Assembly: GCA_037443005.1 (NCBI GenBank)
Contig: JBBIPE010000002.1
Coordinates: 6,815 to 70,814, forward strand
DNA: 64,000 nucleotides
Reading direction: 5' to 3'
Origin: an archaeon
GTDB taxonomy: Archaea > Nanobdellota > Nanobdellia > Parvarchaeales > Parvarchaeaceae
Numbering within the stretch: the stretch's first letter is position 1; every line of letters starts with the position of its first letter. A model generated the notes under the pieces. It was not told the DNA's origin, made no database searches, and saw nothing but the letters and a program-made list of their open reading frames with translations. Positions 43,956 to 56,073 of this stretch are shown here, piece after piece. The position numbers and the translations under genes are program-made.

Positions 43956-44483
43956 ATGAACAGGAAAGGGCAGATATTCACAATAGATCTGCTTATATCT
44001 CTTTTTATCTTCCTGCTGCTGTTTACTACAGTCCTGCTTTTTCTGTATTCAAATGCCGATATAGACAATTCTTATTCCTCATACTACTCGCAACTGGAGT
44101 CAAATTATATCAATAATATAGCAGTACAAGGGGCAAATTCCTTGGTTGAGTCGGAAGGCTATCCTGTGGATTGGAATACTCTTACGTGCAGTCAAATAAA
44201 ACAGGTTGGTTTAATGCAAACTTACCTTGAGGCTTCGCCGTCAAAGCTTTATAACCTTACGACCCTGCCGGTTTCCTGTCTTTCTGCGCTTTTAAAAGCA
44301 GGGGCCAACTTTAACATCGCGTTTTATTACCTTAATAATTCAATGTTAAGGATAAACGGAGTGCCTATTACTGCGGGTTTTCCAATAGATCTCTCGGCTG
44401 ATTACATCTCTTCCATAGAGCGGTTTGTGGTTTTATACCCTGGAAATGAAATAATTCGTTTATCTTATAGGGAGTGGTCATGA
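43956..44483 (+). CDS. Class III signal peptide (type IV pilin-like) protein
   Basis: MNRKGQIFTIDLLISLFIFLLLF has a K-G|Q prepilin-peptidase-type site followed by a hydrophobic helix. Confidence 0.65.
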   Translation: MNRKGQIFTIDLLISLFIFLLLFTTVLLFLYSNADIDNSYSSYYSQLESNYINNIAVQGANSLVESEGYPVDWNTLTCSQIKQVGLMQTYLEASPSKLYNLTTLPVSCLSALLKAGANFNIAFYYLNNSMLRINGVPITAGFPIDLSADYISSIERFVVLYPGNEIIRLSYREWS

Positions 44484-45172
44484 AAAAAGGGCAGATATTT
44501 ACGATAGATCTTGTTGTCGGAAGCATAATAATACTGAGCGTTATAATCTCCGCCTATTCTATAACAAATTACTACCTTTCGCTCAACAGTTCAATAACCA
44601 CGAATAGCAATTTTATTTCCCTAGTTTACTCGGCTATTTCATCTTTTTCTACTGTGTCATCCACACAATCTGCATTGTTAAATTTTCAGGAAGGGGGTTC
44701 TTCTTCGGCTCTATCGAATTATATCTCATCTACTTTCAATGCAGAGATACACAGCCCGTTTACTATAAATATATTTAAAAAAAGCAATTACTCCTCGGAT
44801 AGCATACCCGATTCATTGATATTCTCCTATAGTTCAGGACCATCGTCCTCTTCATATCTTGATTTCTACGAGCCGATAATAATAACAAATTATAGTAGTG
44901 CCTGCGGTTCCTCCTGCAATTCATCTCTTTCAATAAACAGTGTATTTCCCTCATATAACACGACAATAAACTCGGTAAACTGCAATGTATTATACGGAAA
45001 CGGCACGGCTACTGGATGGACAATCCTAAATAATACTCCTTCTGGGTACTGTACTATAGAAGTGCCTTCATCTGCAAATCCCGGCGGCTACGATACAGTA
45101 ACCGCTTCATCTGGCTCCGCTACTCTTCGAGTTATTGTGCTTGATTTGATGCAGTTTGAAGTTTCAAAGTGA
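44480..45172 (+). CDS. Class III signal peptide (type IV pilin-like) protein, Ser-rich
   Basis: ATGA overlap with the upstream stop. MKKGQIFTIDLVVGSIIIL shares KGQIFTIDL exactly with the upstream gene. Confidence 0.65.
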   Translation: MKKGQIFTIDLVVGSIIILSVIISAYSITNYYLSLNSSITTNSNFISLVYSAISSFSTVSSTQSALLNFQEGGSSSALSNYISSTFNAEIHSPFTINIFKKSNYSSDSIPDSLIFSYSSGPSSSSYLDFYEPIIITNYSSACGSSCNSSLSINSVFPSYNTTINSVNCNVLYGNGTATGWTILNNTPSGYCTIEVPSSANPGGYDTVTASSGSATLRVIVLDLMQFEVSK

Positions 45173-45511: not shown

Positions 45512-47230
45512 TTATTCGGCAAAGTAGTTTCCGGCCGCTTTCTGTTCAATATCAAGCCTGCTTCCCCTCTGGTTTATTCTTGGCCTTCCGCTGTCCTTAT
45601 CCCTTCTGATAGTTATGTCCATTCCTTTCAGGAAGTTGTTTATAGCCTTCTCCGTTTTTTCTATATCATCAGTCATGCCGTTTATTCCTTTTTGACCTCT
45701 AAAAAGTATACTTCTTGGGCAAGTTGAATCCAGGAATGCAAGGTCATGGTCAACTATTATTGCACATTTATTCCTGGAAGAGATAAATAAGGATATTATG
45801 TTCATAGATTCCAGCCTGTCTTCTATATCCAAATTCGCAGATGGCTCATCTATAAGATAGATATCTGCATTTTGCATTAAAGTCGTCATTATCGCAAGCT
45901 TCTGCAGCTCTCCACCGGAAAGGTTCTTAACATTCTTCTTCATGATCTTGTTTATTCCCAATTTATTGAAAGCAGATATTATACCCATATCATTTGTATA
46001 ATTTGGATTTATGCTTATTAAAGTATTTTCAACTATACCATCAAAAGGCTTGATGATCTGAGGTTTATAGGCAATTTTTATGCCCAAATCAAGTTTTCCT
46101 ATACTTGTTTCAGTCAGTCCCGCAAGCGATTTTATAAACGTGCTTTTACCTATTCCATTCTCTCCTATTACACCTATTACATCTCCCTTGAAAATCTTAC
46201 CGCCTTTTGTATCAAGCGTAAAGCTGTCAATTTTTACACTGAATTCCGGCCAGGTTATAAATGGCTCGTTGGTTACAGGCGGGAGGACCTTTTTTATGTG
46301 TATACTATAATCTCTGAATCTCACGTTTTCGGTTGGAAGATAACCATTAAGATATGTATTTATGCCGTTTCTTGAGGGCATTATATGGGAAGCTATTCCG
46401 TAGTTTGCCTCTGAACCGTATAATATCTGTATAAAATCTGTTATATAGTCTAGCATAACAAGATCATGTTCAACAACCACAACAGTTTTATCCTTTAAAT
46501 TCTCTTTTATTTTTGTTGAAACATTTAGCCTTGTATTTATATCTAAATAATTCATCGGCTCATCAAATATATAAACATCCGCATCTTCATCCAATGTCTT
46601 GGCTATTTCGACAAGCTGTGATTCTCCTCCAGAAAGCGTTTCTGTGTCTCTGTCCATTATTGCGGGGTCTATAATGTTTAATCTATCCTTTTTTACTATA
46701 TCTCTTACCTTTCCTTTCTGTGAAAAAGACTGCTCCTTCTTCGCTATTTTCATTTCACTTGAATATATCTTTGTCAAGTAAGGTTGTATGTCCTTCCCTC
46801 TGAACCTTTTTATTATCTCTTCATTGGAATAAGTCCTGCTAAAATCTCCGAAATTAGGTTTTATCTTGTCCGATATAAGGTTTATGTTCGTAGTTTTTCC
46901 TATCCCATTCCTTCCTATAAGCCCCACTATCTTGTTCTCTATTGGTGTCGCTATACTAAATGTTCTAAAGCTGTTTATACCATACTGGAAAGTTAGATCC
47001 TTTGCCATCTCATCCGGTAGATTTATTATCTTTATAGCGTCAAAAGGGCAGCGTTTTACACATATTCCGCAGGAAATACAAAGGCTTTCTGTTATTGCGG
47101 CTTTTCCGTTTTCCCTTGCATAAACGGTTTCCTTTGCACCCTCTCTAACCCTTGGACAGACATCCGCACATATATAATTGCAGTTATCAGGGGCCTCGCA
47201 TTCGCTTTCCTTTATAACAGCAACTCTCAT
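45512..47230 (-). CDS. abce1: ABCE1 / RNase L inhibitor-type ribosome recycling ATPase
   Basis: N-terminal 2x[4Fe-4S] Cys motifs (CADVCP.., CISCGICVKRCP), and two ABC modules (GRNGIGKT, LSGGE; GENGIGKS, LSGGE). Confidence 0.95.
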   Translation of the reverse strand: MRVAVIKESECEAPDNCNYICADVCPRVREGAKETVYARENGKAAITESLCISCGICVKRCPFDAIKIINLPDEMAKDLTFQYGINSFRTFSIATPIENKIVGLIGRNGIGKTTNINLISDKIKPNFGDFSRTYSNEEIIKRFRGKDIQPYLTKIYSSEMKIAKKEQSFSQKGKVRDIVKKDRLNIIDPAIMDRDTETLSGGESQLVEIAKTLDEDADVYIFDEPMNYLDINTRLNVSTKIKENLKDKTVVVVEHDLVMLDYITDFIQILYGSEANYGIASHIMPSRNGINTYLNGYLPTENVRFRDYSIHIKKVLPPVTNEPFITWPEFSVKIDSFTLDTKGGKIFKGDVIGVIGENGIGKSTFIKSLAGLTETSIGKLDLGIKIAYKPQIIKPFDGIVENTLISINPNYTNDMGIISAFNKLGINKIMKKNVKNLSGGELQKLAIMTTLMQNADIYLIDEPSANLDIEDRLESMNIISLFISSRNKCAIIVDHDLAFLDSTCPRSILFRGQKGINGMTDDIEKTEKAINNFLKGMDITIRRDKDSGRPRINQRGSRLDIEQKAAGNYFAE

Positions 47231-48910: not shown

Positions 48911-48949
48911 TTGAAAAAGCATTTATCCTTTGAACATTCATTATAAATT

Positions 48950-50674
48950 ATGGCAGAATACATGCTGAACAACAAATTTAATGATCCATTCAATAAGGTC
49001 CAGTTTGGTGTTTCTATAGGAGAAAGGAACCAGCTGGAGGAATTCTCAAAAGTACTTAGAAGCGGGGCCAGGATGGTTGAGATTGATGTGGCAAGTGTTT
49101 ATGGCTTAGGAGGTGAGCAGGGGAATGCTGCTGACACTATAAGCAAAGCGGAGAGGGAGGCAATAGCCAATCTAGCAAAGACTAATGACGTAGATTTAAG
49201 TGTTCACGCACCATGGGCTGTTAATTTTTCTGGTTTAAACCCTCAGTCAGGCAAGAAAGAGCAAACATATGAACATATGGTTGACAGAGAGGTAAGCACA
49301 GCATTGGAGTTCGCTGATGATATAAGCAGGAAGATGGGCAGAAAGAATATACCTGTCATCTTTCATGCCTCCTCTGATAATTTTTCGGATCCGGACAAAA
49401 ATACAGTGTATTCAGTTTATGACAGTGAAGAGGACAAGATTATGCAGGTCCAGACACAGGAAATTAATCTGGGTGTAGATACAAACCAGGTAACAAGTAT
49501 AGAAGACAGAAAAAACAAAGCAAAGGAAAAATTCATGGATATATACGGAAAGGATCTATACAATAAAATTTTTAATAATAGTGGCCAGCAGCTTGGATTC
49601 TTCTCGGACGATGGCAAGGTTATACTGAAACCAGAAGGTTCATTTGAATTTCAGAAGGATAAATTCTCCCAGCAGTTCAGTCAGGAGCGGGCCAACCTTA
49701 ATTTTACACAGAGGAACCTAGAATATAGGAAATTGAATGCAATGAACAGTATGGCTAATGCGAAGGCGAAATCCGATTTAAATGCGCTTAAAGCGGCACA
49801 GCAGGATTTAGAAGAAGTGAATAAAATGATAAAGGATACAAATGAGAGAATGGGAGAGCTGAAGATTCAGGAAAATAACTTAGATAAAAGATTTATACCT
49901 TATGATAATATCGCTCCAAATCTAGCCGCAGAGGGGATAGCAAAGGCTGCTATGGTATCATATAAAAACACAGAGTCCAAACCAGTGATACTTGTGGAGA
50001 ATCCGATGTCTCCCGAGATGTCATTGAGCAATCCAAAGGATACAGCAGAAGCGGTAAAATTAGCCAGGCAGAAATTTGCGGAGGAGCTACAACAGAAAGA
50101 GCATATCTCATTAAAGGAAGCTGAGAGGGTAAGCAGTGATCTTATAGGGATAAATTTGGATATAGGGCATATAAATGTTTTTAAATCATATATAAATCCA
50201 AAGACCGGCGAGCCGTATTCAGATAAAGATATAGTTGAAATGTCAAAATCTGCGGCAGAATACCTGAAAAGATACCATCTAAATGATAATATGGGAAACA
50301 GAGACAGTCATCTTCCGCTAGGACAGGGAAATGCGCCGATAAAGGAAGTTTATGATGCTATGATGGAAAAAGGCCTAGACGTACCTGCAATAATGGAGGT
50401 TTTCGGTGGCCTAGGCGGTTTGGAGGTAGGTGCAGTTCAGTCTCTTCAATATATGGGCGCACCTATATACGGGAATACTCCCTATGTTTCACTGCCGGCT
50501 TATCTGGGCCAGCCTTATTCTTCAATAGTCGGAGATTACTCTTCTTACTCCAATCTAGGTTTAAAGTACGATTTATTCTCATATGGTGGTTTTTCAGGTT
50601 TGTTTCCTGCCACAGGAGGAGGTTACATGGAAAATAAGGGGAATCAGTCTTTCTCCGGACAGCCGATGTTTTGA
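48950..50674 (+). CDS. Endonuclease IV / xylose-isomerase-like TIM-barrel protein with large coiled-coil insertion and Tyr/Gly/Ser-rich tail
   Basis: The ordered motifs SVHAP, VIFHAS, ILVENP, LDIGH, YHLNDN, DSHLPLGQG and IMEV mirror the Endo IV metal-ligand series (HAPY, xxHPG, LEN, DTCH, HLND, DRHxxIG, ILE). About 200 aa (aa ~142-343) are inserted between the second His and the Glu. The tail at aa ~503-574 is Y/G/S-rich. Confidence 0.6.
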   Translation: MAEYMLNNKFNDPFNKVQFGVSIGERNQLEEFSKVLRSGARMVEIDVASVYGLGGEQGNAADTISKAEREAIANLAKTNDVDLSVHAPWAVNFSGLNPQSGKKEQTYEHMVDREVSTALEFADDISRKMGRKNIPVIFHASSDNFSDPDKNTVYSVYDSEEDKIMQVQTQEINLGVDTNQVTSIEDRKNKAKEKFMDIYGKDLYNKIFNNSGQQLGFFSDDGKVILKPEGSFEFQKDKFSQQFSQERANLNFTQRNLEYRKLNAMNSMANAKAKSDLNALKAAQQDLEEVNKMIKDTNERMGELKIQENNLDKRFIPYDNIAPNLAAEGIAKAAMVSYKNTESKPVILVENPMSPEMSLSNPKDTAEAVKLARQKFAEELQQKEHISLKEAERVSSDLIGINLDIGHINVFKSYINPKTGEPYSDKDIVEMSKSAAEYLKRYHLNDNMGNRDSHLPLGQGNAPIKEVYDAMMEKGLDVPAIMEVFGGLGGLEVGAVQSLQYMGAPIYGNTPYVSLPAYLGQPYSSIVGDYSSYSNLGLKYDLFSYGGFSGLFPATGGGYMENKGNQSFSGQPMF

Positions 50675-51456
50675 TGGAAGAAAACAACGATAAAGGGAAA
50701 TTGGAACTTAGAGGTTATAGTGCAGCCTATAAATTTGCAAAGGGCATATTTGAAAGATACCCGAAGATAATGAAAACAATAGTTCTATTCGGATCTTACA
50801 GCAAAGGCAAGGAAACCGACGACAGCGACGTAGATATAATGGTTGTAATGGATGATGTCTTGAATAAACTGGATGAAAGCACACAGTCCCTTATATTTAG
50901 TGATGTTGATAATCTTGTAAAGGAAAGCGAGGCAAAACTGCATATAAATTTTGTTACTTTGACTGCGTTTTGGAGAGGAGTAATAGCAGCAGATCCTGTT
51001 TCAGTAAATGTTTTAAAGTACGGCGTGCCGCTCATAGATACTGGATATTTTGAGCCTTTGCAGGCACTGCTTAATATGGGCGAGATAAAACCAACAGAAG
51101 AGTCAATTTACGCTTCTCTTACAAGAAGCGAGCTTTACTCTAATTCTGCTAAGCTCAAGCTTGCAGGCGTGGTAACAGATATGTATTGGGCAGTTGTAAA
51201 TTCCGCACAAGCAGCTATAATGCGGAACGGAGAGGTTCCTCCTTCACCTGAATTAATTCCCGAAATGCTTGAGAAGCTTGAAAAGCGTGGATTAATAAAC
51301 AAAAAAGATACGGACACCTTTAATGAGATATATCTGCTTGGAAAGAGGATATTTCACGGAGAAAAGATTGAAATAACCGGAGAAAAAGCGCAGGAACTGC
51401 TTGTTATGGGAATAGAATTCAATTCAAAGATGGCTGATCTTGCAGGATCTAAATAA
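50671..51456 (+). CDS. Nucleotidyltransferase-domain protein (MNT-type) with helical C-terminal domain
   Basis: LFGSYSKGKETDDSDVDIMVV (GS-x-DxD minimal NTase motif). The helical C-terminal half is possibly HEPN-like but has no clear R-x4-6-H. It overlaps the upstream gene by 4 nt. Confidence 0.65.
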   Translation: MMEENNDKGKLELRGYSAAYKFAKGIFERYPKIMKTIVLFGSYSKGKETDDSDVDIMVVMDDVLNKLDESTQSLIFSDVDNLVKESEAKLHINFVTLTAFWRGVIAADPVSVNVLKYGVPLIDTGYFEPLQALLNMGEIKPTEESIYASLTRSELYSNSAKLKLAGVVTDMYWAVVNSAQAAIMRNGEVPPSPELIPEMLEKLEKRGLINKKDTDTFNEIYLLGKRIFHGEKIEITGEKAQELLVMGIEFNSKMADLAGSK

Positions 51457-52000
51457 ATGTATTTATAATTATACCTATTCCGGCGCTTATAACAGCTATC
51501 AAAAGTCCTATACTTGCTGTTTTAAGGCCTTCTTTTATTCTGTCTTTTTTCTTCTCAATTGAGTAACTCCCAACATAAGCCAGTATTATAAGACTCGCTA
51601 TAAGTGAGATAATGCTGGCGGAAGAATCCTTCCTTATTTTTAATAGAGAATATGCAATGTAAGGAGTAAGCACTATCAAGCTGCCAAGTAATGTGGAAAG
51701 AAAGCTTAATTCTGCGTACTTCAGATTCTTTGATTTCTTGTTTTTTGTGATTTTATCTGGATTATAATCTCTGGCAAACATAATCTTCCCATATTCTTTT
51801 ATCTGTTGACCTAGAACGAAGTTTTCCGCGTTGTATGTCGAGAAGAAGTTTGAGAGCGAACCACTCACTCCAACAAGCAAGATAGACGCAAATGTAAGGT
51901 TATAGCTGTGGAAAAAGGATATACCCAAGGAGATACCCAAACCGAGAAAAAGGCCATCGCTTAATCCTAGTATTATATACCTACTTCTTGCCCTTTCCAT
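51449..52000 (-). CDS. VIT1/CCC1-like membrane protein
   Basis: GLSDGLFLGLGISLG-type motif and ~5 TM helices. Confidence 0.45.
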   Translation of the reverse strand: MERARSRYIILGLSDGLFLGLGISLGISFFHSYNLTFASILLVGVSGSLSNFFSTYNAENFVLGQQIKEYGKIMFARDYNPDKITKNKKSKNLKYAELSFLSTLLGSLIVLTPYIAYSLLKIRKDSSASIISLIASLIILAYVGSYSIEKKKDRIKEGLKTASIGLLIAVISAGIGIIINTFI

Positions 52001-52250
52001 TAGAATTTACCGTGGCTTCATCAAGGCTGTTTATTACAGCACCTCTATCCTTCAGGGCTTTTTGCACACCGTTAAAGTTTATCCTTCCTTCTATGACTAT
52101 CTTTAGGCCTTCAGTATGTATATCAACTTCTACAACCTTTATGAAAACATTGCCATTTCTGACATGCTTTGCTAAGTCATTTGCCAAATCTATTATATTA
52201 TACTCACCGATAGGCTTAACTGCATCTATCACTATTCTGCTTAAATACAT
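51981..52250 (-). CDS. DUF211 family protein
   Basis: 89 aa. IVIDAVKPIGEYNIIDLANDL...VVEVDIHTEGLKIVIEGRINFNGVQKALKDRGAVINSLDE matches the DUF211 pattern as recalled. Confidence 0.55.
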   Translation of the reverse strand: MYLSRIVIDAVKPIGEYNIIDLANDLAKHVRNGNVFIKVVEVDIHTEGLKIVIEGRINFNGVQKALKDRGAVINSLDEATVNSNGKGKK

Positions 52251-52367: not shown

Positions 52368-52760
52368 ATGATATTCGGAAAGAGCGCACAAGGGTTGCCT
52401 ATCAATACTATAATACTTATTGCAGTCGGTCTCCTTATACTTGTTTTACTTGTCACTTTTGTTTTAGGAGGTTTCAAAGGTCTAGGAGGAGGAGCCAGTG
52501 CGTCTAATAGTGCAATAACGGCTTTTGAGACCCAATGTTCAACTACTGCATCTTCTGCGGCAAGTTCCGGTTCATTTCCTTATGGGTGGTGCAGTAATAC
52601 TATAACAACCTCTACGGGTAAAGTATTGTGGTGCTATACAAACCCATCAAATTTAAAGAATAGCACGACTACTACTTTGTATAATGGTTCTACTTTAGAA
52701 GCTCCTTTACCTCCCGGAGCATCATCCGCACCCGGTGTAGTCTATTGCCCAGCGCCTTAA
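52368..52760 (+). CDS. Small secreted pilin-like protein (N-terminal hydrophobic helix, Cys-containing Ser/Thr-rich C-terminus)
   Basis: MIFGKSAQGLPINTIILIAVGLLILVLLVTFVL has a short charged leader followed by a ~25-aa hydrophobic segment, similar to the 59255 ORF N-terminus. Confidence 0.5.
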   Translation: MIFGKSAQGLPINTIILIAVGLLILVLLVTFVLGGFKGLGGGASASNSAITAFETQCSTTASSAASSGSFPYGWCSNTITTSTGKVLWCYTNPSNLKNSTTTTLYNGSTLEAPLPPGASSAPGVVYCPAP

Positions 52761-54131: not shown

Positions 54132-54800
54132 ATGGAAGGGTTAAAGACAGGCTTTGGGTCGTTTGATGAATTAACAGGGGGATTAGACTATAGAAAAGTG
54201 TACTCATTGTTCGGAAATAAAGAATCTGGCAAGGAGCAGTTCCTATACAAACTTGTACAGTCGGCGCTGGCTAGCAGAAATTCGATTGTTTACGTGTTAA
54301 CCTCTAAATCATATTCAGAACTTATAAATGAGTTTAATTCCAGGAATATCCCCATAAACCAGTATCTTGGAAAGGATTTTATAATTCTTGATGATTTCAG
54401 CAGGACAAATTCTCCGAATCTTACGGACAATGCATATGCAAAGATTCTGAACGGCCCTATCGATCTGACGGGTTTATCCGTTGCGCTTTCCAATACAAAC
54501 AGCGATTTTATAAAGGATGCAAAAACGGTAATAAACATCTTTGACAATCTATCCAATCTTCTGATATATAATAATCCGGTAACTGTTTATAGGTTCCTCC
54601 AGTTTATATGCGGAAAATCTAAAACAGCTGGTGTTACAACTTTCTTTTCATTGGATACAGTAATGCACCCTCCAGATGTTATAGAGACTATAAAGAATCT
54701 TTCGGATACAATTATAACTTTAGATCTTCAAAACGGTAAGAGAGTTTTTACTTTGGTTGGAGCAAGCAGAGAAGTTTTGGAGCCAAAGGAGATTGGATGA
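54132..54800 (+). CDS. KaiC/RecA-superfamily (FlaH/ArlH-like) protein with deviant Walker A
   Basis: LKTGFGSFDELTGGLDYRKVYSLFGNKESGKEQF is a KaiC-like N-terminus whose P-loop GNKESGKE has Glu in place of Ser/Thr. Walker B-like FIILDD. Confidence 0.6.
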   Translation: MEGLKTGFGSFDELTGGLDYRKVYSLFGNKESGKEQFLYKLVQSALASRNSIVYVLTSKSYSELINEFNSRNIPINQYLGKDFIILDDFSRTNSPNLTDNAYAKILNGPIDLTGLSVALSNTNSDFIKDAKTVINIFDNLSNLLIYNNPVTVYRFLQFICGKSKTAGVTTFFSLDTVMHPPDVIETIKNLSDTIITLDLQNGKRVFTLVGASREVLEPKEIG

Positions 54801-54834: not shown

Positions 54835-56073
54835 ATGGTAGAATATAAAGGTCTGGATGGAATTGAAGAGGATATAGATCCATATTTTGGAATAGCCAAA
54901 CTTGATGAACAGCTTAAAGGTATCCCATCAAAGAAAATAGTTTTAATCTCAGCTTCCCCTTCTGTGGGAAATGAGGTTTTTGGGTATCAGATAATAAACA
55001 AAAACATAGACGAGAATGTTAAGACATTGGTTTTTCTCAACAGAACCTCACCGCAATCCTATCTCACAGAGATGAAAGAGTACGATTTGCCTTCCAATGA
55101 CAAATTATTCTTAATAGATGCATATAGTGGAATAACAGGTATAAAAACAGATGAAACCGATCATATAAAAGTTATAAATAATCCTTATGACAGGGAGGAG
55201 GTAAAATCGACTATACTGTCTGAGCTAGAAAAAGGATACGGTCTTTTTGTCGTTGATTCACTTTCATTACTAGTGGACTTTTTTGATTTTGACTATGTAA
55301 ACTCATTTGTATTGGAACTTAAAAAAGTCATGGAAAAGAATGATTCTGCGGCTGTTATGCTATTTACCGAATGGGGATATAGCGATGAAAACTTCAAAAA
55401 ATTAGCCTCAAACGTAAATTCTATAATAGAGATCAAAGGCATAGAAAAGAGGGTGATATTTGGGCAGTATTTCGCTGTGGTTAACTGTGATTGGATCACT
55501 GAAAAAAGCAATTTCTCCTCTGTTCTATTTAAGGCTATGAAACCTGGGGGAATAAAGGTTTATTTCCCGAAGATACTTGTAACAGGGCCTACTGATGCAG
55601 GTAAGAGCTCGTTTATACACAGTGCTTCGAAGGATGCAATCAGCGTTGATAAATTAGGAGGGACAATTGCACTTGATCATGGCAATGTCGATTATAATGG
55701 TTACAGGGCAGATTTGTTTGGTACTCCTGGACAGGAGAGATTTGATCCTCTACTGAGAATGCTTGGAGGGGAGGCAATAGGTGTGTTTTTAATTGTGGAC
55801 TCCACAAAACCGGAGCAGTTTCCAAGGGCAATAGAAATGCTCAGAAAAACCGAAACTTACGGCCTGCCTGTCGTTGTTGTTGCAAATAAGGCAGATCTAA
55901 AAGGAGCATTAAGCAAGGAAGATATAAGATCTAGACTTCATCTGGATTCTGCTATAGATCTTGTGCAGACTTTTGCGGAGGATCTGTCGAAAATTGATCC
56001 AAATGAGCCTACAAAATTAAAGGAGGAAGGTATTCACGAGGCTTTGTCAGTTTTGTTCAAGCAGCTGACATAG
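54835..56073 (+). CDS. Fusion protein: degenerate KaiC/RecA-like domain + small Ras-like GTPase (COG2229/MglA-like)
   Basis: The N-terminal ~240 aa have a RecA-like layout (FGIAKLDEQLKGIP..IVLISASPSVGNE with no GK[ST]; Walker B-like LFVVDSLS). The C-terminal ~170 aa (nt ~55567-56073) carry G1 GPTDAGKS, G3 LFGTPGQERF and G4 NKAD. Confidence 0.65.
   Translation: MVEYKGLDGIEEDIDPYFGIAKLDEQLKGIPSKKIVLISASPSVGNEVFGYQIINKNIDENVKTLVFLNRTSPQSYLTEMKEYDLPSNDKLFLIDAYSGITGIKTDETDHIKVINNPYDREEVKSTILSELEKGYGLFVVDSLSLLVDFFDFDYVNSFVLELKKVMEKNDSAAVMLFTEWGYSDENFKKLASNVNSIIEIKGIEKRVIFGQYFAVVNCDWITEKSNFSSVLFKAMKPGGIKVYFPKILVTGPTDAGKSSFIHSASKDAISVDKLGGTIALDHGNVDYNGYRADLFGTPGQERFDPLLRMLGGEAIGVFLIVDSTKPEQFPRAIEMLRKTETYGLPVVVVANKADLKGALSKEDIRSRLHLDSAIDLVQTFAEDLSKIDPNEPTKLKEEGIHEALSVLFKQLT

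Follow-up and report, generated by a model that had tools for sequence, protein, structure and literature searches.

A split TIM-barrel protein with an endonuclease IV-type ligand set and its linked nucleotidyltransferase in DPANN archaea

RESULTS

The barrel gene and the transferase gene

The window analyzed here is a 64,000-nucleotide stretch of contig JBBIPE010000002.1 (assembly GCA_037443005.1) from an archaeon of the family Parvarchaeaceae. Between positions 48950 and 51456 it carries two adjacent genes, one encoding a 574-residue protein with a xylose isomerase-like TIM barrel (the barrel protein) and the other a 260-residue nucleotidyltransferase (the transferase). The original prediction, made from the letters alone, had described the first product as an endonuclease IV (Endo IV, Nfo)-like barrel split by a long insertion and ending in a Tyr/Gly/Ser-rich tail. 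The open reading frame (ORF) listing contained both genes, the second ending at 51456, and the translations contained all the motifs quoted at that time: SVHAP (H86), IFHAS (H139), LVENP (E350), DIGH (D404 and H407), YHLNDN (H443), DSHLPLGQG (D452 and H454) and IMEV (E483), together with the helical stretch, the tail and the GS...DSDVD motif of the transferase. The parts of the pair are as follows.

48950..50674, + strand, stop codon included: barrel gene (574 residues; ORF listing), PF01261 superfamily, with an Endo IV/MJ1311-type nine-ligand metal site
49001..49384, + strand: first half of the barrel, strands 1 to 4 (residues 18-145), holding the codons of H86 (49205-49207) and H139 (49364-49366)
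49385..49900, + strand: insertion (residues 146-317) in the loop after strand 4, from the AlphaFold2 model and the spacing in 278 family members
49901..50434, + strand: helix 4 and second half of the barrel (residues 318-495), from the AlphaFold2 model, ligand invariance and hhalign
49997-49999, 50159-50161, 50168-50170 and 50276-50278, + strand: codons of E350, D404, H407 and H443 in the second half
50303-50305, 50309-50311 and 50396-50398, + strand: codons of D452, H454 and E483 in the second half
50435..50671, + strand: C-terminal Tyr/Gly/Ser/Pro-rich extension (residues 496-574), from conservation in alignments
50671..50676, + strand: gene junction TTGATG, with the stop codon TGA at 50672-50674 and the start codon ATG at 50674-50676 sharing one base
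50674..51456, + strand: transferase gene (260 residues), PF01909 and PF18765, two domains
50674-51078, + strand: Pol-beta/MNT-type domain (residues 1-135) with G40-S41 and D52-x-D54
51079-51453, + strand: HEPN/UPF0332-like helical domain (residues 136-260), from the AlphaFold2 model and the name used by JGI

The barrel protein belongs to the PF01261 superfamily

The barrel protein is a member of the PF01261 TIM-barrel superfamily. Its match to Pfam PF01261 (xylose isomerase-like TIM barrel, AP_endonuc_2) was significant, as the original prediction would have it, with an E value of 1.4e-14 and a score of 54.9 bits against a cut-off of 31.1. The match fell into two stretches, the best of which covered residues 392 to 492, and PF01261 was precomputed for nearly all of 62 full-length orthologues. 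No specific NCBIfam family was reached: the best match was to CbiR (NF041277; E value of 1.7e-4, 21.2 bits against a cut-off of 105), and the epimerase and isomerase models of the FrlC/Hyi/UlaE type gave at best 13.9 to 23.4 bits against cut-offs of 305 to 353. The more specific assignment to the Nfo family did not hold at this level, as the NCBIfam nfo model did not match the barrel protein at an E value of 1 or less and a phmmer search with E. coli Nfo found nothing in the window at an E value of 10 or less. In databases the family goes under the names "TIM barrel protein," "sugar phosphate isomerase/epimerase," "endonuclease IV" and "hypothetical." It is acidic, with a median isoelectric point (pI) of 5.8.

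The AlphaFold2 model of the barrel protein, built with an alignment of 23 orthologues, had a predicted local distance difference test score (pLDDT) of 76 and a predicted template modeling score (pTM) of 0.75. In this model eight strands (residues 20-23, 42-46, 82-86, 135-139, 346-350, 399-404, 439-448 and 480-484) form a barrel, with the insert placed in the loop after strand 4. Foldseek searches with the full-length model matched 3wqo, UlaE and UVDE with a template modeling (TM) score of about 0.7 on the target, and the TM scores on 3wqo and 3cqi were 0.66 to 0.70; these matches were weak because the insert dilutes them. Nothing significant was found in the Foldseek viral library. Among solved structures searched by sequence, MJ1311 (3WQO) was nearest, followed by "Probable endonuclease 4" and D-tagatose 3-epimerase, all of them marginal.

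The nine ligand positions of Nfo are present and conserved

The original prediction held that the order of the motifs follows the metal ligands of Nfo. We found that, once the insert was removed, all nine positions were colinear with E. coli Nfo: H86 with H69, H139 with H109, E350 with E145, D404 with D179, H407 with H182, H443 with H216, D452 with D229, H454 with H231 and E483 with E261 (barrel protein first in each case). The E. coli nfo reference was taken from MG1655 and used as a single-sequence template in hhalign. When the whole-family profile was aligned with it, only the C-terminal half was covered, with D404/H407, H443, D452/H454 and E483 paired; when the columns of the insert and the tail were stripped from the 278-sequence alignment, a full colinear alignment was obtained, adding H86, H139 and E350.

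Conservation among the 278 full-length members is a stronger argument for this mapping than the hhalign score. Seven of the ligands (H86, H139, E350, D404, H407, H443 and E483) were each kept in 277 or 278 of the 278 members (at least 99.6%): H86 in 277, H139 in all 278, and the core residues E350, D404, H443 and E483 in 277 to 278. The pair D452/H454 was Asp/His in 85% of the members, with His/Glu instead in about 13%. All nine columns were invariant in 23 Parvarchaeota orthologues, and in the AlphaFold2 model the nine candidate ligands sit at, or just past, the C-terminal ends of strands 3 to 8. An Endo IV/MJ1311-type ligand set that is complete and under strong purifying selection is well supported. 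The sugar epimerases of the PF01261 superfamily use a four-residue E-D-H-E core only, and the five additional invariant ligands (H86, H139, H407, D452 and H454) point to the phosphoesterase branch. Judged from its ligand set, the barrel protein would be expected to hydrolyze phosphoesters.

A large insertion interrupts the barrel in every family member

The spacing from H139 to E350 was 211 residues in the barrel protein, exactly as had been claimed, and ranged from 173 to 323 residues (median, 249) across the family. Since this long spacing was present in every one of the 278 members, the insertion is a defining feature of the family. The original prediction had placed it at nucleotides 49373 to 49978, corresponding to residues 142 to 343, and had described it as a heptad-like coiled coil. 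The large insert stood; the plain coiled coil did not. In the AlphaFold2 model the insertion is bounded by strand 4 (residues 135-139) and by the helix at residues 318 to 340, which leads into strand 5, and it is composed of a small beta-rich subdomain (approximately residues 154-226) followed by two long helices at residues 228 to 273 and 277 to 309. Its pLDDT was about 90 or above for most residues, with one 10-residue block at 83. A crude Fourier periodicity test of residues 228 to 309 gave no strong 3.5-residue (heptad) signal. The model thus suggests a beta subdomain with a helical hairpin stalk, for which "coiled coil" would be only partly right.

Because it is placed in a beta-to-alpha loop, the insertion is predicted to project from the catalytic face of the barrel, the face by which Nfo binds DNA. 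Its sequence is rich in Glu and Lys and poorly conserved, with a mean majority fraction of 0.26 to 0.27, versus 0.44 to 0.52 for the barrel. From its modeled position, a lid or a substrate-selecting role would be as likely as oligomerization. Matches of the insert to Pfam and PDB entries (in the PDB profile search RTF1, a hemagglutinin stalk, a tape measure protein and M protein) were judged to be spurious coiled-coil matches and were set aside.

The C-terminal tail is conserved position by position

The original prediction had also described the last residues (nucleotides 50456 to 50671, residues 503 to 574) as low-complexity sequence. The biased composition was evident (Gly 17%, Ser 11%, Tyr 8% and Pro 8%), but the tail is not random low-complexity sequence, as its conservation is position specific. 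Across the family, in which the tail is 60 to 100 residues long, its consensus reads ...GSPxY...PW...GYxxGYG..LP...YGxGFSGLPxELGGQ...SRFSG[TA]PM[E] at the C terminus, and the motif is retained in distant clades. Fourteen tail columns were invariant in Parvarchaeota (P522, Y523, S524, G528, Y533, L538, D541, F548, P553, G556, G558, Y559, F568 and G570), and the mean conservation of the tail in the 278-member alignment was 0.45, within the 0.44 to 0.52 of the barrel. In the monomer model the tail had a pLDDT below 35, and its placement was not predicted. An arm that docks onto a second subunit or a partner would typically give such low values; conserved tails can be inter-subunit arms, as in xylose isomerase.

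The transferase forms a highly conserved family of its own

The transferase matched PF01909 (E value of 2.1e-9, 38.1 bits against a cut-off of 21) and PF18765 (2.5e-9, 37.6 bits against 26.9), and its relatives are named "nucleotidyltransferase/UPF0332" by JGI. Its AlphaFold2 model (pLDDT of 87) contained a Pol-beta-type domain followed by a four-helix bundle. In Foldseek searches it matched ANT(9), AadA, ANT(4'), LinB, HalB, MntA, GlnE and DrrA, with E values of about 2e-5 to 1e-3 for ANT(9), AadA, ANT(4'), HalB and MntA. In 24 diverse sequences G40, S41, D52 and D54 were invariant, and DD60-61, H90, W100 and PPSP189-192 were invariant or nearly so; the same sequences held no conserved copy of the Rx4-6H HEPN nuclease motif in the helical domain. 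The partner is predicted to be a nucleotidyltransferase similar to kanamycin nucleotidyltransferase (KNTase-like), in which the HEPN-like helical domain is non-catalytic. Across phyla its sequence identity was 33 to 45%, versus 22 to 31% for the barrel protein, which indicates strong constraint, and its single-sequence E values were 1e-40 to 1e-52, versus 1e-20 to 1e-40. In most non-Parvarchaeota lineages the transferase is basic (pI of 8.5 to 9.5).

About 20 loci outside Parvarchaeota also contained, a few kilobases downstream of the pair, a longer transferase paralogue (370 to 640 residues), in which the same transferase/HEPN-like core carries N- and C-terminal extensions; it often adjoins a gene for ribosomal protein L35Ae. 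No such paralogue was found in the window. Examples are listed by locus.

L043:11412-13340, - strand: longer transferase paralogue
L081:10651-12504, - strand: longer transferase paralogue
L087:9987-11096, + strand: longer transferase paralogue
L088:3790-4935, + strand: longer transferase paralogue

The two genes share one base

The genes had been predicted to be coupled through an ATGA overlap. The tight junction was confirmed; the overlap was found to be a single nucleotide (TGATG), the sequence reading ...TTT TGA TGG.... The transferase start at ATG 50674 is supported by a 260-residue database product and agrees with the orthologues, which begin MEE or MDE; an alternative TTG at 50671 would make a 4-nt overlap. 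This is close enough for translational coupling. On its 3' side the pair meets a convergent gene of the VIT1 family, and it is therefore bicistronic in the window. Among RNA-seq runs, none was found to contain this sequence. Ahead of the barrel gene lies the following stretch, in which TTTAT may be an archaeal TATA box; a bicistronic transcript started from it would be leaderless.

48911..48949, + strand: A/T-rich intergenic stretch with TTTAT about 25 nt 5' of the ATG, read from the sequence

The pair is widespread in DPANN archaea

A word-indexed search recovered the 62 full-length barrel orthologues, at 44 to 80% identity, and the named ones among them were all labeled Parvarchaeota or Parvarchaeum (ARMAN-4, ARMAN-5), which marks the window as DNA of a Parvarchaeum-like DPANN archaeon of the ARMAN type. 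An exhaustive profile search extended the family to 733 cluster representatives at an E value of 0.001 or less, 504 of them at 1e-10 or less. Most representatives were 520 to 700 residues long, and many aligned from the N terminus through the C-terminal motif. In a scan of one genome per species, at least 575 stretches matched, and locus labels were taken from the best 80 of these. The labels were Woesearchaeota, Pacearchaeota, Nanoarchaeota, Diapherotrites/Iainarchaeum and unclassified archaeon, with one labeled "Bacillota." A homology search with a protein of an intermediate clade (P0069) added little taxonomic information.

Two bacterial labels were observed. The locus labeled "Bacillota bacterium" (L083, DATKUW010000032.1) carries the full pair, and one transferase homologue (P0253) is labeled "Omnitrophica bacterium"; both are probably mis-binned DPANN contigs.

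The transferase gene was next to the barrel gene in all five Parvarchaeota loci, and in the other Parvarchaeota the two were separated by 1 to 2 nt. Of the distant DPANN loci, 68 extended at least 1.2 kb past the barrel gene, and in 63 of these the transferase followed it on the same strand no more than 3 kb away (median apparent gap, 192 nt). Both loci of the intermediate clade (L087 and L088) had the same order. The insertion and the adjacent transferase are thus found well beyond this genome. The surroundings differed between clades: the Parvarchaeota pair is preceded by ABCE1 and followed by a KaiC-like ATPase, an Arf-like GTPase and Roadblock, and in other clades a GluRS-like gene, L10e, L35Ae and phosphoenolpyruvate synthase are found. 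As the pair alone was common to all neighborhoods, functional coupling rather than inherited synteny is argued. We consider it well supported that the two genes form a DPANN-wide, vertically inherited enzyme pair, which probably serves a core function of the DPANN lineage rather than being a quirk of one genome.

A third gene accompanies the pair outside Parvarchaeota. In 52 Woesearchaeota, Pacearchaeota and Nanoarchaeota loci the barrel gene is directly preceded, on its own strand, by the gene of a protein of about 480 residues (C2), which also lies upstream in the intermediate-clade locus L087 (L087:4499-5956). Its conserved motifs (loci L007-L086 and L087) are YDSxSExLEPIYFWILD, DNFxSSPGSGHFSELG, YLKSQVxSLKxYTRWAKPYL and NPFSALFG. 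Searches with C2 gave no match in Pfam, NCBIfam or PHROG and no meaningful one in PDB, and C2 is absent from the 64-kb window. The idea that C2 is an encapsulin shell with the barrel tail as its cargo peptide was dropped, as nothing supported it.

Other genes around the pair

Several further genes flank the pair in the window. The VIT1-family membrane protein gene overlaps the 3' end of the transferase gene by 8 nt, and a DUF211 (COG1888) gene also converges on that end; both were present in the Parvarchaeota loci L002 and L003 and absent in L001 and L004. Upstream, the ABCE1/RLI gene was found in all Parvarchaeota loci examined. Downstream, a cluster conserved in Parvarchaeota resembles an MglA/MglB-like GTPase switch; in its 412-residue GTPase-domain protein an N-terminal ATPase-family match was only faint. 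Three small proteins with class III (type IV pilin-like) signal sequences flank the pair and look like archaeal pilin/pseudopilin-like surface proteins, the third of which (cluster C22) is kept at the same position in other Parvarchaeota.

43956-44483, + strand: small protein with class III signal sequence MNRKGQIFTIDLLISLFIF
44474-45172, + strand: small protein with class III signal sequence MVMKKGQIFTIDLVVGSII
45512-47230, - strand: ABCE1/RLI-type ribosome-recycling ATPase, 4Fe-4S and two ABC domains (orthologue Pfam)
51449-52000, - strand: VIT1-family membrane protein
51981-52250, - strand: DUF211 (COG1888) protein
52368-52760, + strand: small protein with class III signal sequence MIFGKSAQGLPINTIILIAVG
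54132-54800 and 54835-56073, + strand, and the next gene downstream: conserved Parvarchaeota cluster with a KaiC/RecA-like ATPase (PF06745, DUF7504), a 412-residue Arf/Ras-type small-GTPase-domain protein and a Roadblock/LC7 protein (orthologue Pfam)

DISCUSSION

A proposed hydrolase and transferase for one substrate class

We tentatively favor the reading that the barrel protein cleaves a phosphodiester or phosphomonoester and that the transferase then adds a nucleotide, the two acting on a shared class of substrate. The barrel protein would be a metal-dependent phosphoesterase with a nine-residue trinuclear site, whose substrate face has been rebuilt by the inserted domain. It would hydrolyze a phosphodiester or phosphomonoester, most plausibly at a blocked or damaged nucleic acid 3' end or at a nucleotidylated hydroxyl, and the transferase would add a nucleotide after this hydrolysis. 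The inserted domain may select or clamp the substrate, and the C-terminal arm may bind a neighboring subunit or a partner. Such a module would serve end healing and addition, or nucleotidyl turnover, rather than act as a stand-alone classical apurinic/apyrimidinic (AP) endonuclease. That both enzymes would act on the same substrate class is suggested by the linkage of their genes. The nature of the substrate is the weakest step of the proposal. CbiR, a PF01261 phosphodiesterase that acts on a non-DNA substrate in cobamide remodeling, provides a precedent, and the phosphoesterase branch is therefore not limited to DNA substrates (PMC7733943).

Several observations weigh against the hydrolase-and-transferase proposal. 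Other members of the PF01261 superfamily are isomerases and epimerases, and hydrolysis is read from the ligand pattern alone. The alignment with Nfo has weak statistics (hhalign probability of about 5%, E values of 0.0025 to 0.0076), and E. coli Nfo does not detect the barrel protein by phmmer. The insert has a net charge of about -3 in an acidic family, unlike a nucleic acid clamp. The nearest structural relatives of the transferase modify small molecules or proteins, not nucleic acid ends. Finally, gene adjacency is linkage and not proof of a shared substrate.

The main rival is that the barrel protein is the DPANN version of endonuclease IV, an AP endonuclease and 3'-phosphodiesterase with the insert and the tail used for oligomerization or for recruitment to other proteins of replication and repair, and with the transferase assisting in repair, for instance as a minimal enzyme that fills gaps or tails ends. 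No cell can do without an AP endonuclease, and a housekeeping repair role would suit a gene that is vertically inherited and nearly universal in genomes of very small size. The barrel protein has all nine Nfo ligands as well as the HLND...DxHxxxGxG motif, the transferase is basic in most non-Parvarchaeota lineages, several orthologues are named endonuclease IV by JGI, and MJ1311, the closest relative with a solved structure, is given as the Endo IV homologue of Methanocaldococcus jannaschii (PMC2770678). We nevertheless regard this explanation as possible but doubtful. Neither the nfo model nor a phmmer search with E. coli Nfo matched the barrel protein at the thresholds given above, the insert occupies the side of the barrel with which Nfo contacts DNA, and the barrel protein is acidic. 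The equivalent of Nfo Tyr72 is a Trp in Parvarchaeota only and is absent or nonaromatic elsewhere, the region equivalent to Nfo Arg37 is not conserved, and no repair genes recur in the neighborhood of the pair. The structural neighbors of the transferase lend themselves to another explanation, in which it would add AMP or another nucleoside monophosphate to a hydroxyl of a protein or small molecule, possibly a Tyr or Ser of the C-terminal arm of the barrel protein, and the barrel would cleave the resulting phosphodiester. This cycle of nucleotidylylation and de-nucleotidylylation is decidedly unlikely in our judgment, as it is purely inferential, we know of no precedent for a PF01261 de-AMPylase, and the conserved tail may equally be an inter-subunit arm. 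In its favor, the neighbors include small-molecule O-nucleotidylyltransferases (ANT(9), AadA, ANT(4') and LinB) and protein-Tyr AMPylators (MntA, GlnE and DrrA), several Tyr and Ser residues are invariant in a tail that is predicted to be flexible, and CbiR shows that the superfamily cleaves phosphodiesters other than those of nucleic acids (PMC7733943).

The names given by NCBI and JGI would make the barrel protein a sugar or sugar-phosphate isomerase or epimerase and the transferase an unrelated neighbor. The weak NCBIfam matches to fructoselysine 3-epimerase and hydroxypyruvate isomerase and the Foldseek and PDB matches to UlaE and D-tagatose 3-epimerase agree with these names, but all of these matches are far below curated cut-offs, and five extra invariant ligands are added, in the manner of Endo IV, to the E-D-H-E core. 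The cross-phylum linkage to a Pol-beta-type transferase would be left unexplained, and sugar metabolism is very limited in DPANN archaea; we find this explanation very improbable. Defense, which the original prediction had included among the possible functions, is barely credible as a role for the pair. In favor of a defense or toxin-antitoxin module around an MNT-type transferase are weak matches of the transferase domain to the MntA antitoxin, to HalB and to PDC-S09, a PADLOC candidate family. However, these cover only the generic transferase core and stay below cut-offs (for MntA, 31.7 bits against 60), no separate HEPN toxin is present, the fused helical domain lacks a conserved Rx4-6H motif and the barrel protein has no PADLOC match. 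Stable synteny beside housekeeping genes in hundreds of species is also the opposite of patchy defense islands.

Significance

DPANN genomes rank among the smallest of any cells, and the lineage-specific genes conserved in them mostly lack an explanation. An enzyme of about 550 to 650 residues with an intact Endo IV-type center that is kept in hundreds of species of several DPANN phyla together with a linked transferase is a strong candidate for a core function. If the barrel protein is the AP endonuclease of these archaea, it shows how a textbook repair enzyme was remodeled by adding a large domain to the face that binds DNA; otherwise, it defines a new phosphoesterase/transferase pathway. 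In either case the database name "sugar phosphate isomerase/epimerase" is misleading and is corrected by the present finding. A wider view, rather unlikely as we see it, is that the barrel protein, the transferase and, in most non-Parvarchaeota lineages, C2 form a DPANN-specific core machine without a counterpart in free-living archaea, which would serve nucleotide or nucleic acid salvage or reversible nucleotidylylation. Either role would then be tied to the host-dependent lifestyle, and in the nucleotidylylation version the target of the transferase would be the Tyr/Ser arm of the barrel protein, with the tri-metal site undoing the modification.

The superfamily and both catalytic folds are already known, and nothing yet shows a chemistry outside the known repertoire. 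The architecture had been called unfamiliar in the original prediction, and in agreement with this the database names were generic and our literature search found no paper on a split barrel with a nucleotidyltransferase in DPANN archaea. As far as the searchable literature shows, neither the split architecture nor the conserved arm, the fixed partnership or the DPANN-wide spread has been described before.

Comparison with known systems

The barrel protein shares with Nfo the (beta/alpha)8 barrel, the nine ligand positions in order and the HLND and DxHxxxGxG motifs. It differs from Nfo in being twice the size and in having the insert after strand 4, a conserved C-terminal arm and a linked transferase. 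Nfo is a compact barrel of about 285 residues with an open DNA-binding groove and the DNA-inserting residues R37, Y72 and L73, whereas the barrel family does not conserve counterparts of Y72 and R37. MJ1311 (PDB 3WQO, "D-tagatose 3-epimerase-like protein") shares the DxxH and H..D.H..GxG motifs with the barrel protein and was a marginal match (E value of 0.02 with the single sequence and 0.0011 with the profile, TM score of 0.70 on the target); unlike the barrel protein it is compact, with 293 residues and with neither insertion nor tail. Its structure reportedly retains all nine of the Nfo residues but has no DNA groove. CbiR is likewise a PF01261 barrel and the best NCBIfam match, but since the match is below the cut-off the barrel protein is not a member of that family. 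CbiR has no insertion or tail, and no cobamide genes were found among the conserved neighbors of the barrel gene.

The transferase resembles ANT(4'), AadA, ANT(9) and MntA/HalB in its Pol-beta-type domain with GS and DxD, its C-terminal helical bundle and its similar length. It differs from them in sequence (11 to 20% identity) and in domain orientation (root mean square deviation of about 18 Å over the full length). In comparison with the MntA/HepT type VII toxin-antitoxin system, its score is about half of the 60 bits needed, its helical domain is fused and the conserved Rx4-6H motif is missing. The transferase falls below all curated family cut-offs and constitutes a highly conserved DPANN family of its own, marked by DD60-61, H90, W100 and PPSP189-192.

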